From contig JBBIMK010000050.1 in assembly GCA_037444445.1 (NCBI GenBank), forward strand, positions 1 through 5,472: DNA of 5,472 nucleotides. Direction: 5' to 3'. Position numbers and translations under genes: made by a program. Positions 1 through 5,261 of this stretch are shown here, one piece after another (the first letter of the stretch is position 1; every line of letters begins with the position of its first letter). The stretch comes from a bacterium (GTDB lineage Bacteria; UBP7; UBA6624; JBBIMK01). A model generated the notes under the pieces. That model was not told where the DNA came from and did no database searches. It worked only from the letters and a program-made list of their open reading frames with translations.

Positions 1-77
1 CCTTACAGCACTTCCCCCCATTTTTGCTTCGCAAATACTTCTTTTATGCCGGGAATCTTCAGGCGAAATTCTTTGAT

Positions 78-84
78 GGAGGTG
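78..84 (+). promoter_or_regulatory. Shine-Dalgarno site (GGAGGTG) for the 91..951 ORF
   Basis: GGAGGTG at 78-84 is a near-perfect anti-SD complement. It sits 6 nt upstream of the ATG at 91. Confidence 0.7.
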
Positions 85-90
85 TAAGTT

Positions 91-951
91 ATGTTCGTGA
101 GCAGTTTTTTTCTTATCGGTATGGGACATAAAAATAAAAGCGATGATGAATTTCAAAGAAGGCTCGTCATTGCCTCCTCTCAGCAGAAATGTGTGGTCGG
201 TTTGGAAGGTTTAACCTATGGGGCCAGAAAAAATACCCGGGAGTTTGTAATTTCTGCTTATGGCGTTGAAAATGCTGAATCGGTTTTTGGTATAGAAGAC
301 GACTTCGTGAATAAATTTGCCGGTGCTTTATTACACTATGGATATTTGTCAACAAAAATGAAAAACGAGATTCCTGTAGTTAAGACACAGTTGATTTTTG
401 ACATCTTTAATAGCCCAACAGTTAAGAAAATATGGAGCCATATATCAAGTAAACCATTATCATCTGAAGTAACCGCTTTAGTTTCAGCAATTCATCAATT
501 CATCACTAACAACAGTTCTTCATCATTGAAACACTTGATTAATGAGTTTTATCATCATCAATTGCAACAATATCCTTTTACAGATGACAATGCTTATATT
601 GAACTATTAAAAGAGATTATAATAACTATGAAGACCATTGGAGGTTCAGAATATCAAATTACATCTTATTGGGTTGATATTGAGAAATATATTCAAGACC
701 CAGGGAATCACACTTATCAGGCATTTGTTGTAGACCAAATCAATGGGGAATGGAGAGACAGATTTATTGCTAAAAATATGAGGGAAATAATTGATAAAGG
801 GATTCAATTAGGTTTACCTGTTTACTTTCTTATCGGCAAAGGACATATACAGTCATTGAGTGCGAAATTACCATCAAATTATGAAGGATATGTGCAAAGA
901 GTGTATGCTAAACCCTCAATCATTCCAGATGAATTATTACCTAAAATATGA
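91..951 (+). CDS. Hypothetical protein in an AT-rich segment; candidate divergent TraB/PrgY/GumN-Tiki-ChaN-erythromycin-esterase superfamily enzyme
   Basis: A 286-codon ORF with an ATG start and a strong SD 6 nt upstream, ending at TGA 949-951. Motif order: FFLIG-M-G-H13; then the CVVGLE39G strand; then E220-W-R-D-R-F-I-A-K-N-M; then VYFLIGKGH252 followed by EGYVQRVY. This matches the GxxH ... hhhE ... E(x)RDxxhA ... hhhhGxGH ... GYxVxR pattern I recall for this superfamily. There is no signal peptide or TM segment. GC is about one-third against more than 50% in the neighbours. The confidence value applies to the CDS call; the family assignment is about 0.5. Confidence 0.8.
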   Translation: MFVSSFFLIGMGHKNKSDDEFQRRLVIASSQQKCVVGLEGLTYGARKNTREFVISAYGVENAESVFGIEDDFVNKFAGALLHYGYLSTKMKNEIPVVKTQLIFDIFNSPTVKKIWSHISSKPLSSEVTALVSAIHQFITNNSSSSLKHLINEFYHHQLQQYPFTDDNAYIELLKEIIITMKTIGGSEYQITSYWVDIEKYIQDPGNHTYQAFVVDQINGEWRDRFIAKNMREIIDKGIQLGLPVYFLIGKGHIQSLSAKLPSNYEGYVQRVYAKPSIIPDELLPKI

Positions 952-954
952 TGA

Positions 955-975
955 CATTGAAATGGCTTTTCAATG
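955..975. repeat. Perfect 8-bp inverted repeat, CATTGAAA-TGGCT-TTTCAATG (hairpin or palindromic site)
   Basis: Positions 955-962 are the exact reverse complement of 968-975, with a 5-nt spacer. The repeat starts 4 nt after the ORF 91..951 stop. The stem is AT-rich and no U-tract follows, so it is not a canonical terminator. Confidence 0.6.
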
Positions 976-1021
976 CTTCGGTCAGGCGTTCGCAGAAATG
1001 AGAGGATGCCCGATAAAACCA

Positions 1022-1045
1022 GAAAAGCGAAACCGTTTGCTTTTC
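1022..1045 (+). terminator. Candidate weak intrinsic terminator or hairpin downstream of the AT-rich ORF
   Basis: GAAAAGCGAA-ACCG-TTTGCTTTTC forms 9 Watson-Crick pairs plus one G.U, with a 4-nt loop. The 3' arm ends in TTTT and the 5' arm starts with AAAA, a bidirectional-looking layout. The stem is GC-poor and no long U-run follows it. Confidence 0.3.
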
Positions 1046-1083
1046 GGATTCTGCACAGGATGGAAGGTGACTGAATTCTGAGT

Positions 1084-2174
1084 GTGGTTTTGTTGTATTC
1101 GCCGGCGGCGATTCTGGTGAGGGAGAAATTGGAGGCCCTGCGCAAACAGTGGGGATATACCCCCCGGTCAGCCGTGCGTGTGGAGGCGGAAGCCCTTACC
1201 CCTGACCTGCTCCGCTCGCTGTTTCAGGGAGAATCCCTTTTTCTTCCCCGGGTTCGCCTGGAGGTAAAGAATGCAGCGGAAATCATTCGCCTGCCTCTGG
1301 ACAGCCTGGTTGAAATCAAGAGCCTGCTGAAATCTGCGCCGGAATCTGCCCTCGTCCTGTTCTATCAGGAGGGAGAGATGGAATCGCCAGCGCCGAAGGG
1401 AAGAAGTCTCGCCCCCGCGGGAAGCGGGAAGGTGGAAAGCCGAATCCCGGAGCCCGTTGAGGTAGAAAGCGAGGACGAGGGTGAGGAGGAAATACAGGAG
1501 GAAAAGGGGAAAAAGACAGAGAAGAAGCCCCGCTCATTTCTGGAGTATTTCCGCGGCATCCCGAATGTCCAGAAAATCATTCTGGAGCCGCCGAAATGGG
1601 AGGCATTAAAAATATGGACCGTTCAAAGAGCCAGTCGGAAAGGACTCCAGTTATCTCACACCCTGGTTACACCTTTTCTGGAGCGGGTGGGCGAGCAGCT
1701 GGACTCTATTGAGCAGTCGCTGTCTCTTCTCTCCCTTCTGAAAAGGGAAAGTTCACAGGTGACTCTAAAGGATGTGGAAATGCTTCCGGAATCTCCGGAA
1801 GCGAACATCTATAAGATGATGGATTTTTTGTGGCAGGGGGAGAGCGGGAAATCTTTGCACCAGTTAAAGAAATTGCAGTTGCAGGGCGTGGCACCGGAGC
1901 GGATTTTAGCCAGGGTGGCTTACGAAGCCAGAAGACTGGTTCAGGCAAAGCACCTGCTGGAGCAAAAACAGTCGCTGAACCCCCTCACCGACGGCTCTTC
2001 CTGGAAGGAAAAGAAACTCCGTGCCAATATGAGGCTTTTCCCGTATCATCGCTCAAGGGAGATTTTCCTGCTTTTATCCGGCGCAGATTTACGGTTGAAA
2101 ACCACCAACGAGCCAGCGTTCGCTCTACTGGAAGAACTCTTTTTACGCCTGTCTGCCATTCTGGGGGTGAAGGG

Positions 2175-2178
<4 letters not shown>
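1084..2178 (+). CDS. holA: DNA polymerase III delta subunit (clamp-loader, HolA family), carrying an acidic low-complexity insertion
   Basis: A 364-aa ORF. The N-terminus VLLYSPAAILVREKLEAL resembles the HolA 'yLlyGee.fL..e.l..l' start. NIYKMMDFLWQGESGKSLHQLKKLQLQGVAPERILARVAYEARRLVQAK matches the domain II/III pattern 'vF.L.dai..g....al..l..L...ge.p..il..l....r.L...k'. The C-terminal LSGADLRLKT...LLEELFLRL matches 'l.e.D..lK......le.l...l'. The first canonical start after the in-frame TGA at 1072-1074 is GTG at 1084. The nearest SD-like AGGTG (1065-1069) is 14 nt upstream, so the exact start is uncertain. Confidence 0.75.
1782..1802. repeat. Perfect 9-bp inverted repeat, GCTTCCGGA-ATC-TCCGGAAGC, inside holA
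   Basis: Positions 1782-1790 are the exact reverse complement of 1794-1802, with a 3-nt spacer. Each arm contains the TCCGGA palindrome. The element encodes ..MLPESPEA... Confidence 0.6.
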
Positions 2179-3470
<1,292 letters not shown>

Positions 3471-3587: not shown

Positions 3588-4109
3588 ATGATGACTGAAA
3601 AAATGCAGAAGGCGATGAATCAGCAGTTGAATCGGGAATTGTATTCTGCCTACCTGTACCTGGCGATGTCCGCTTATTTTGAAAACCATAACCTCAGCGG
3701 ATTTGCTCACTGGATGCGGGTGCAGGCAAGAGAGGAAGAAGCACACGCCATGAAGTTCTACCGGCATCTGGTGGAGAGGGGCGGAAGGGTGGTTTTATCG
3801 GCTATTGAATCCCCACCGAAGGACTGGAAATCCCCCCTCGCCGTATTTCAGCAGGCTCTTGAGCACGAGCAGAAGGTGACGAAAATGATTCACGACCTGT
3901 TGAACCTGGCGAGGGCAGGAAAAGACCACGCCGCCGATGCCTTCCTTCAGTGGTTCGTGAAAGAGCAGGTGGAAGAAGAGTTCTCCACTAACGAAATCGT
4001 GCAGAAACTCAACTGGATTGGCGAGTCCGCCGGCGGCCTGCTCCTTTTAGACCACGAACTGTCTAAAAGAAAAGTGGAGAAAGGCGCAGACGAGGAAGAA
4101 AAAGAATAA
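3588..4109 (+). CDS. ftnA: Bacterial non-haem ferritin (FtnA-type)
   Basis: 173 aa. With the start at 3588, the ferroxidase-centre residues fall at the E. coli FtnA positions: E17, Y24, E50, H53, E94, Q127 and E130, plus the site-C acids E49, E126 and E129. The four-helix-bundle motifs are NRELYSAYLYLAMS, REEEAHAMKF, ALEHEQKVT and FLQWFVKEQVEEE. An AGGGAGAG SD-like run lies at 3571-3578. A second ATG at 3591 is an alternative start. Confidence 0.93.
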   Translation: MMTEKMQKAMNQQLNRELYSAYLYLAMSAYFENHNLSGFAHWMRVQAREEEAHAMKFYRHLVERGGRVVLSAIESPPKDWKSPLAVFQQALEHEQKVTKMIHDLLNLARAGKDHAADAFLQWFVKEQVEEEFSTNEIVQKLNWIGESAGGLLLLDHELSKRKVEKGADEEEKE

Positions 4110-4120
4110 ATCATTCCTCG
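4091..4120. repeat. 7-bp inverted repeat, CGAGGAA-N16-TTCCTCG, spanning the ferritin stop codon in the convergent junction
   Basis: Positions 4091-4097 are the exact reverse complement of 4114-4120, and the 16-nt loop contains the TAA at 4107-4109. No U-tract flanks it on either strand, so it is at best a weak bidirectional terminator. Confidence 0.3.
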
Positions 4121-4121
4121 C

Positions 4122-5261
4122 TTACCCATCATCACTCGCCCCTTTTCTATGCCATTTGTATGACTTCAGAAACTGCTGGATGGTCTCAGGGGGAAGCCCA
4201 TAACTGCGGTCTAAAAGAGCACGGCACTTCCGTAATTCTCGCAGGTTCTCCTCCGTGGGCGAAATCTCGCAGAAACGCTGTAAGGCATAAACATAAGATT
4301 CCAGATTGCGATAGGGCTCGTAAGTGGCTGTATTGAAGAAGGTCCGGGAGTTGGAACTGGCAAGGTCTTTCAGCCTTATCCGCTTTCCCCACGCATTCCC
4401 ACGGAAGTAAAGGATGGGAAACTCCAGCAAACTCCCCGACAGAATCCGTGCTCTCCGAATAAAATTCAGCCCCGAGAATCGCCGAAGAAAAGTGAACAGG
4501 TGGAAGAACCACACGCATAAAAAATCGGTGAAAGTAAGATGTTTCGCAGATGTTTTCAACAGATTTCTCCGAATGAAATACTGCTTGAATTCTAAACAAA
4601 CAGACCGAAGGGAAGCAGAATGATGATGATATACCACGGCGGAAGGGCAGGTGCGAATTTCATATCCTCTGCGGTGGGCTCGGACGCTGAAATCTATGTC
4701 CTCATAATACAGAAAGTAAGAAGCATCCAGCCCTCCTGAGGCAAGGAAAGGCTCTCTTTTCAGCAGAACCGCAGCAAAGCAGGCTCCAAACACCCGCTCG
4801 GGTGCGTCGTATTGCCCGATGTCAGGCTCTCCACACCCCCGATTGAATGCCTGGAAATGTGAGTCCACTCCCGTTCCCACCGCATCCAGAAAGCCAGGGT
4901 GCTCTTGCAGGAGAATCTTCGGACTCACGGCGATGCAGGCCTGCTGTTTTTGTATCTCTTCTAACATCCTCTCCACCGCATCCTCTTTCAAGATTACATC
5001 AAAGTTGAGGACAAGGAGGAAATCTTCTGTGGCTTTTTGAGCGCCCGCATTCACCGCAAAGGCGAATCCTCCATTCCGGGGCAATTTCAGGATTTCAGCA
5101 CCCATTTCCTCCGCCACTTTCAACCCCGATTCCTCATCCGAGTTACTATCCACCACAGTGACACTCACCGACACCGTTTGCTTCTTCAGAGATGAAAGGA
5201 GGAGGCGCATCTCCTGCTCCTCGCTGTTATAGTTGACGATAATCCCTCTTACCGAGTGCAT
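4122..5261 (-). CDS. Family 2 glycosyltransferase (GT-A fold, rhamnosyltransferase-like) with an extended C-terminal region
   Basis: GIIVNYNSEEQ...VTVVDSNSDEES matches the GT2 N-terminal 'vIIvnYN ... vDN.S.D' pattern. NGGFAFAVNAG and the YYEDIDFSVRAHRRGY DXD-type motif (EDID at 4692-4703) are also typical, followed by VVYHHHSAS and FIRRNLL. The stop is TAA at 4122-4124. I prefer the ATG at 5261 (MHSVRGIIVNYN) because AGGAA lies 5 nt upstream of it. The track ORF instead begins at GTG 5291, 10 codons longer, with no good SD. Confidence 0.85.
   Translation of the reverse strand: MHSVRGIIVNYNSEEQEMRLLLSSLKKQTVSVSVTVVDSNSDEESGLKVAEEMGAEILKLPRNGGFAFAVNAGAQKATEDFLLVLNFDVILKEDAVERMLEEIQKQQACIAVSPKILLQEHPGFLDAVGTGVDSHFQAFNRGCGEPDIGQYDAPERVFGACFAAVLLKREPFLASGGLDASYFLYYEDIDFSVRAHRRGYEIRTCPSAVVYHHHSASLRSVCLEFKQYFIRRNLLKTSAKHLTFTDFLCVWFFHLFTFLRRFSGLNFIRRARILSGSLLEFPILYFRGNAWGKRIRLKDLASSNSRTFFNTATYEPYRNLESYVYALQRFCEISPTEENLRELRKCRALLDRSYGLPPETIQQFLKSYKWHRKGASDDG

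Follow-up and report, generated by a model that had tools for sequence, protein, structure and literature searches.

A probable TIKI-superfamily protein of a rare, unnamed family, encoded at the end of an AT-rich insertion upstream of holA

Background

The activities known from the TIKI superfamily include Wnt cleavage, pheromone shutdown, macrolide resistance and the cleavage of Ras by a toxin. In the present study, we analysed a stretch of bacterial DNA of 5,472 nucleotides (contig JBBIMK010000050.1, hereafter the window) and, within it, the open reading frame (ORF) at positions 91..951 of the forward strand, together with the family of proteins to which its product belongs. We assign a probability of about 0.7 to the reading that this ORF is a functional, horizontally acquired gene, the last of an AT-rich insertion of ~2.2 kb, and that it encodes a single-domain TIKI-superfamily enzyme.

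Members of the superfamily share an alpha+beta fold in which a central parallel beta-sheet of ~5 strands is flanked by helices; a set of two His and two Glu is essential in RRSP, and the mechanism proposed for the erythromycin esterases (Ere) relies on a water molecule activated by a His-Glu pair (PMC6254334). EreC (PDB 6XCQ/6XCS) and BcR135 of B. cereus (PDB 2RAD/3B55) were the top structural neighbours of the two models that we built for the family. Ere enzymes and the family have in common an alpha/beta core that carries His and Glu at the ends of strands, as well as a lid of helices. However, Ere enzymes are ~400 aa long against 286 aa for the ORF protein, the template-modelling (TM) scores were just 0.2-0.36 at E>=8e-3, no match was found at the sequence level and the helical insert shows no sequence relationship to theirs.

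In TraB/PrgY/GumN and Tiki, the motifs stand in the same order as in the ORF protein, with GxxH, a strand-2 Glu, a second acidic strand, an R-N/D helix, a second GxxH and a final strand. TraB-type proteins are also of similar size (264-300 aa; E. coli YbaP, 264 aa), whereas their long helical insert comes after strand 2 and that of the ORF protein after strand 3. TraB, PrgY and Tiki are either secreted or associated with membranes, unlike the leaderless ORF protein. ChaN (PF04187) shares the N-terminal strand-G-x-x-H-helix-strand-E block with 10 of the 32 aligned family members, with one further C-terminal match at positions 174-205 of the model. It differs in that the Glu of its G-E-x-H motif is a Met in the ORF subfamily, that the middle 130 residues have no match, and that ChaN is a haem-binding lipoprotein.

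Finally, RRSP of MARTX toxins, the C1-C2 region of PMT, HopBA1 and RavE use the TIKI fold as a leaderless effector or as a domain of a giant toxin; RavE of Legionella depends on E19 and H21. Like RRSP in MARTX, the family described here occurs inside proteins of 1,800-3,500 aa. The likeness to RRSP, PMT, HopBA1 and RavE is a functional analogy only, with no sequence or structural match, and the carriers of the family are environmental Omnitrophota, Elusimicrobiota and Planctomycetales, not known pathogens. Unlike in MARTX, the family was seen with neither MARTX repeats nor a CPD domain nor genes for a secretion system.

Reality and composition of the gene

The ORF is the sole long one of its region, and it has no 5' extension because an in-frame TAA lies at 85-87. 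Its basic features are as follows.

78..84, + strand: Shine-Dalgarno sequence GGAGGTG, read from the sequence, 8 nt 5' of the ATG of ORF 91..951
91..951, + strand: gene for a probable TIKI-superfamily single-domain protein of an unnamed family, 286 aa (from the ORF, its ortholog, the ratio of non-synonymous to synonymous substitution rates (dN/dS), homologs and an AlphaFold2 (AF2) model)

A search of 5.8 billion protein clusters recovered only the ORF protein itself and P0002, which is 88% identical. P0002 is encoded on a 12.2-kb contig (L001), likewise immediately 5' of holA; from window position 37 on, L001 and the window share 94.3% identity. The Shine-Dalgarno sequence of L001 (GGAGGCG) has one mismatch to that of the window. 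The two genes differ by 27 synonymous and 38 non-synonymous changes, i.e. a dN/dS of 0.33, which indicates purifying selection (binomial test against neutrality, p=7e-5). For holA and asnS, compared between the same two contigs, dN/dS is ~0.2 and dN is 2.5-3-fold below that of the ORF; the ORF is therefore constrained yet fast-evolving. ORF 91..951 is a real gene.

The sharp change of composition described in the first-pass annotation was borne out by comparison with 14 host genes drawn from the window and from L001. The ORF has a guanine-cytosine content (GC) of 0.340, and of 0.289 at third codon positions (GC3), against 0.527 +/- 0.026 and 0.606 +/- 0.030 in the host genes (z = -7.1 and -10.4, respectively). 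Sliding GC is 0.29-0.40 over the ORF and ~0.52 in the remaining window. When the protein was recoded in host codon usage, GC rose to 0.461 only, so the atypical composition lies in codon choice and in the amino acids alike.

The protein is truly leaderless, as had been proposed, with 4 residues ahead of strand 1, and it has no signal peptide or membrane segment. Its 286 residues are a normal single-domain size, as the length of YbaP illustrates, and the term 'minimal' applied to it earlier is not appropriate.

The insertion upstream of holA

The contig of the window starts within an AT-rich island of which ORF 91..951 is the last gene before holA. Three features describe this part of the window.

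1..1078, + strand: right-hand part of an AT-rich insertion, acquired horizontally (GC 0.29-0.42 against ~0.52 elsewhere, and synteny)
952..1083, + strand: 132-nt spacer between the ORF and holA, in which no terminator-like site was found
1084..2178, + strand: holA (DNA polymerase III delta), native flank (TIGR01128 at 2e-33, PF21694)

On L001, the insert between a gene of the metallo-beta-lactamase (MBL) fold and holA spans 2,176 bp with a GC of 0.33-0.38 and holds three same-strand ORFs. The two that lie 5' of the gene under study (L001 8643-9327) are AT-rich too and encode 157 aa and 69-77 aa; neither has a Pfam, NCBIfam, PADLOC or PDB sequence match.

Host relatives at graded distances were found by an AsnS search, i.e. 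L100 (AsnS 83% identical; Chocolate Pots hot-spring metagenome, PMC6137239) and L101 (66%). The gene order is MBL-fold gene, holA, asnS, ferritin ... family-2 glycosyltransferase (GT2) on L100 and rpsF-rpsR-rplI-dnaB-purD-MBL-holA-asnS on L101, the latter being identical to that of L001. In both L100 and L101, the stop of the MBL-fold gene and the start of holA overlap by 4 nt (ATGA), and tblastn of the three island ORFs against the two contigs found no trace of them. Homology between the window and L100 picks up again at the holA start, near window position 1079 (holA identity, 74%). Since the ATGA overlap occurs in L100 and L101 without the island genes, the gene is non-native and was inserted in the lineage of the window; since the overlap has the same form in two relatives at different distances, it represents the ancestral, translationally coupled state. 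The ORF is kept at this locus in the nearest relative, L001, and missing from it in L100 and L101; conservation in relatives had been named beforehand as a sign against acquisition. The horizontal acquisition put forward in the first-pass annotation is thus upheld by synteny (L100, the ATGA overlap also in L101, absence of the island genes) together with composition.

Judged from these gene orders, the insertion took place in an ancestor that the organisms of the window and of L001 shared recently, where a segment of ~2.2 kb split the overlapping pair of MBL-fold gene and holA. In the window lineage, holA is no longer translationally coupled to the MBL-fold gene as it was ancestrally.

The nearest homolog outside this pair of genomes is P0004, 40% identical to the ORF protein and grouped with it at 95% bootstrap. 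It is carried by L097, a contig of 1,580 nt with 22-28% GC from run SRR11582170, the same sample as L001, and this low GC within the same run makes its bearer a plausible donor-type lineage. An extremely AT-rich organism shares a sample with the host lineage.

Insertion scars (flanking repeats, tRNA, integrase, Rfam matches) were looked for and nothing convincing was found. Plasmid, phage and viral-contig searches with the ORF gave no match, and no PADLOC model was matched at E<=0.1 by its protein, by four relatives or by the two companion ORFs. Close relatives of holA were not found in JGI metagenome contigs, and 80 AsnS loci at ~60% identity had no synteny in common with the window. AsnS matches from named taxa, at 61-63%, were spread over Bacillota, Hydrothermota, WOR-3, Acidobacteria and Dictyoglomaceae. 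We also considered the 132-nt spacer as a remnant of the 3' end of the MBL-fold gene; this was rejected, its scores being no higher than the shuffle mean.

The start of holA has moved since the insertion, as seen when the start regions are compared (window 1076-1090, L001 10470-10480, L100 905-920). It is an ATG over the MBL stop in the island-free relatives and a TTG in L001; in the window, a CTG stands at the old start position and the GTG at 1084 is used.

Conserved residues and predicted fold

The family alignment comprises 32 sequences, and its columns average 23% identity. Four residues, E39, G67, G249 and H252, never vary in it, and five others (H13, G40, E69, W221 and R222) reach a conservation of at least 90%. 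These residues are placed along the gene as follows.

103..129, + strand: strand 1 and first GxxH, SFFLIGMGH, with His13 at 127-129 (H13 in 31/31, G10 in 27/32)
193..210, + strand: strand 2, VVGLEG, with Glu39 at 205-207 (E39 in 32/32, G40 in 29/32)
286..300, + strand: strand 3, F-G67-I-E69-D, with the Glu at 295-297 (G67 in 32/32; E69 in 30/32, D in 2)
352..705, + strand: predicted insert of six helices that separates strand 3 from the W-R helix (AF2 model, predicted local distance difference test (pLDDT) 93-98)
751..780, + strand: W221-R222-D-x-F-x-x-x-N229-M on the long helix 207-240 (W221 in 29/32, R222 in 31/32, N229 in 25/32)
823..846, + strand: strand 4 and second GxxH, YFLIGKGH, with His252 at 844-846 (G249 and H252 in 32/32)

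Several of these positions had been singled out from the sequence in the first-pass annotation. H13, E39, W221, R222 and H252 stood up to the alignment, whereas E220 (E in 8/32, K in 8/32) and G12 (G in 2/32) did not; conversely, the invariant F-G67-x-E69 of strand 3 had been missed. The middle of the protein, previously described as polar and low-complexity, is predicted to be well structured, with six helices over residues ~88-205 (94-107, 109-118, 125-140, 146-157, 166-184 and 191-202) and W115 kept in 24 of the 32 members. This insert is likely a lid or substrate-recognition subdomain.

The AF2 model computed on the family alignment has a pLDDT of 96.3 and a predicted TM score of 0.92. Its strands (5-11, 35-42, 65-69, 244-249 and 267-272) alternate with helices, and the beta-alpha-beta pattern suggests a five-strand Rossmann-like alpha/beta core, from which pattern we infer strand order and parallelism. 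P0046, a distant member that was modelled independently (pLDDT 94), has the same layout. In the model, H13, E39, E69 and H252 sit at or just past the C-terminal ends of strands 1-4, and R222 lies on the long helix ahead of strand 4.

The two strand-GxxH motifs, FFLIGMGH (106-129) and YFLIGKGH (823-846), are alike, and in L001 their DNA (9505-9527 and 10222-10244) is 78% identical over 23 nt. This likeness could point to a pseudo-repeat within the fold.

Superfamily assignment

We compared the family with the TIKI superfamily by motif, profile and fold. The AF2 model has the five-strand sheet flanked by helices, and the family has the set of two His, two Glu and an Arg (H13 31/31, E39 32/32, E69 30/32, R222 31/32, H252 32/32). 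When the 32 members were scanned singly, 10 of them matched PF04187 (ChaN, 'Tiki superfamily' in Pfam). The matches always fell over the N-terminal strand-GxxH-helix-strand-E block, i.e. profile positions ~2-58, to which the region of strand 1 and the first GxxH maps in the members. P0046 scored 33.9 bits (gathering score, 27.7) over 45 N-terminal residues only, and P0006, 36% identical to the ORF protein, scored 24.2 bits; the ORF protein itself gave no match and so did not reach the gathering threshold. C-terminal stretches of other members match the ends of PF04187, PF01963 and PF18950, and the partial ChaN, TraB and DUF5694 matches of members are collinear. For PF01963 as a whole, the ORF protein had no match at E<=1 and the best family member reached E=0.053 (13.8 bits for a cut-off of 26.8). 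With the Erythro_esteras model, neither the ORF protein nor any of the 32 members matched at E<=1.

Profile-profile comparison was carried out with hhalign against a TraB/GumN profile of 10 sequences (E. coli YbaP and annotated plasmid genes). It gave a score of 33.7 (P=6.5e-4), with R222...G249-x-x-H252...strand 5 aligned to R-N...VGAxHL, whereas 200 column shuffles scored 11.9 +/- 8.4 and one of the 200 reached the real score. The comparison of the N-terminal block with the TraB strand was weak (P=0.076) and was not used as support, and that with YbaP alone was not significant (probability 0.8%).

Fold searches were performed with Foldseek against 350,542 PDB chains. For the ORF model, BcR135, EreC and BcR135 ranked first to third (E 8e-3 to 9e-2; probabilities 0.94, 0.90 and 0.57), all remaining PDB matches having a probability <=0.2; for the P0046 model, EreC ranked first and second. 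Taken alone, the fold evidence from these models is only suggestive. The search against BFVD gave no significant match. Its best hit was an uncharacterised Harvfovirus protein of 638 aa, A0A3G5A692 (probability 0.94), with the highest TM score of all fold matches, 0.43, and a Hokovirus protein was also among the matches; by these model comparisons, giant viruses may carry related domains.

A number of results weigh against the reading of the gene as encoding a TIKI-superfamily enzyme. The ORF protein has no Pfam, NCBIfam or PDB sequence match at E<=1, and the family profile found nothing among PDB sequences. The hhalign match to TraB/GumN has a probability of just 27% and covers ~50 columns. 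All Foldseek PDB matches have E>1e-3, the top ones for the two models lying at 8e-3 to 0.1, and TM scores of 0.2-0.36, and the structures of ChaN, RRSP, PMT and HopBA1 are absent from the fold matches of both models. Met11 stands in the ORF protein where RRSP, RavE and ChaN have the Glu of E-x-H, a Glu at this position being present in just 9 of the 32 members. Lastly, no substrate, partner or secretion route can be identified from the genes of the window and L001, and the two island companion ORFs have no recognisable family.

The assignment to the TIKI/TraB/ChaN/Ere superfamily made in the first-pass annotation nevertheless fared well: no single test was strong and no named Pfam family covers the protein, and all tests pointed in one direction. 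Because the methods agree, the motif order is collinear and the 2His/2Glu/Arg set is conserved, we consider it likely that the family belongs to the TIKI superfamily.

Distribution and architectures of the family

An exhaustive HMMER search of 1.84 billion representative sequences retrieved 54 proteins at E<=1e-3, of which 24 at E<=1e-10; a few of the 54 are probably unrelated, their match being confined to residues ~200-229 and to repeated stretches. A profile search of a word-indexed set of 5.8 billion proteins added P0055 only. This is a rare family, named in no database, within the known TIKI superfamily.

The closest relatives come from Omnitrophota, Elusimicrobiota and Planctomycetales, as domains of giant proteins or as secreted or leaderless single-domain forms. 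The leaderless single-domain form, with <=7 residues ahead of strand 1, accounts for 19 of the 32 members, and a hydrophobic N-terminal leader is present in 9. The giant carriers include proteins of 1,983 aa (metagenome-assembled genome (MAG) of Omnitrophota), 1,811 aa with HEAT repeats (MAG of Planctomycetales), 2,619 aa and 3,512 aa (Elusimicrobia), the domain standing directly after a hydrophobic segment in the last one. In this 3,512-aa protein (L006 2978-13516), the domain lies at residues ~2,342-2,620; otherwise, two Rossmann stretches resembling ELFV dehydrogenases were recognised and the remainder has no Pfam match. As regards stand-alone members, one adjoins a TnpB fragment and restriction-modification genes, and another has a gene for an ankyrin-repeat protein ~1.7 kb off.

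The cytoplasmic location of the ORF protein given in the first-pass annotation was an assumption. About one third of the family has hydrophobic leaders, in several members the domain forms part of a giant protein, and RRSP, HopBA1 and RavE are leaderless as well.

Other features of the neighbourhood

The names holA, asnS, ferritin and GT2 given earlier to the neighbouring genes were confirmed by Pfam and NCBIfam. Residues ~105-160 of the holA product (window 1400-1560) form an acidic low-complexity insert (EVESEDEGEEEIQEEKGKKTEKK) that splits the match to the holA model and is present in L001 too. The GTG-started ORF of 546 aa at window 1830-3470 is an upstream extension of the asnS frame that overlaps holA; the asnS product in the protein collection has 431 aa, which places the start of asnS one codon past 2172, in an overlap of a few bases with the holA stop.

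L100 has a HicB-like antitoxin gene between ferritin and GT2 (4226-4462) where the window has only a gap of 12 nt (4109-4122), which makes a second small difference in gene content. Upstream of GT2, window 5314-5382 matches L001 1-69 in reverse complement at 90% identity, with non-homologous flanks; this 69-nt match marks either a rearrangement breakpoint between the two genomes or a short repeat at which the assemblies broke off.

Discussion

Conservation of an invariant 2His/2Glu/Arg set across a family with ~23% mean identity favours catalysis, and by analogy with its described relatives the ORF protein would most likely be an active His/Glu hydrolase. Following Ere enzymes and RRSP, a His-Glu pair would activate water for attack on the carbonyl of an ester or peptide, the substrate would be positioned and polarised by the second His/Glu together with the Arg, and the helical insert would give specificity. 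A peptide or protein substrate is slightly more likely than a small-molecule ester, since relatives occur as domains of giant proteins, as fusions to HEAT repeats and in secreted form, a pattern typical of inter-cellular effector domains and not of a metabolic enzyme. The architectures and contexts of the family would, by the same analogy, fit domains used in inter-cellular conflict or as effectors.

The serious alternative is that the gene encodes a cytoplasmic small-molecule esterase or detoxifier, comparable to erythromycin esterases and acquired against an ester- or lactone-containing compound of the habitat. We hold it to be possible, though on balance unlikely. The top structural matches of both models are indeed erythromycin esterases or the Ere-like BcR135, the protein lacks a signal peptide and membrane segment, and a resistance-type function transferred as a single gene would suit a small accessory island. 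However, the greater length of Ere enzymes (~400 aa), their different lid and TM scores of only 0.2-0.36 speak against it, fusions to giant proteins, HEAT repeats and secretion leaders would be unexpected for a cytoplasmic detoxifier, and neither a resistance-gene context nor a plasmid match was seen.

That the protein is a non-catalytic binder of haem or another cofactor, of ChaN type, with the TIKI fold as a scaffold only, appears improbable. PF04187 is the sole Pfam model that members reach above threshold, and a ferritin gene lies 2.6 kb downstream. The PF04187 matches are limited to the shared strand-GxxH-helix-strand-E core, though, ChaN (2G5G) is not among the fold matches, and a 2His/2Glu/Arg set invariant at such low mean identity is not what a mere scaffold would be expected to keep. 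As to the ferritin gene, it belongs to the native flank and is present in the island-free L100; it is therefore unrelated to the insertion.

The weakest alternative, a native gene of odd composition or a functionless decaying remnant, lost in the island-free relatives, could draw on the presence of the gene at the same site in one close relative (L001) and on its non-synonymous evolution, ~2.5-3 times faster than that of holA and asnS, but it is already largely refuted and very improbable, given the MBL-holA ATGA overlap of identical form in two relatives, a GC3 10 standard deviations under that of host genes and a sister sequence (P0004) in an organism with 22-28% GC, while the dN/dS of 0.33 (p=7e-5), an ORF intact in both genomes and a confident fold exclude a decaying remnant.

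A bolder version of the preferred reading, that of an acquired gene for a TIKI-superfamily enzyme, can be advanced tentatively, and we consider it rather unlikely as a whole. By analogy with RRSP in MARTX toxins, the family would be a hitherto unrecognised hydrolase domain, of effector or toxin type, borne by giant proteins that Omnitrophota, Elusimicrobiota and Planctomycetota secrete or display on their surface; the window gene would have been captured not long ago, as a free-standing copy, from a co-resident organism of very high AT content, and would serve against other cells or incoming genetic elements. If this were true, insertion 5' of the essential holA may make removal costly and so aid fixation.

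Conclusions

The locus is a clean case in which two translationally coupled core genes were recently parted by an insertion and for which relatives with an empty site are available. Beyond the locus, the full catalytic set has been kept in a rare, unnamed family, both in free-standing proteins and inside giant proteins of little-understood, partly host-dependent phyla. The biological pay-off hinges wholly on identification of the substrate, and the 286-aa protein is a tractable entry point to what such giant proteins do.

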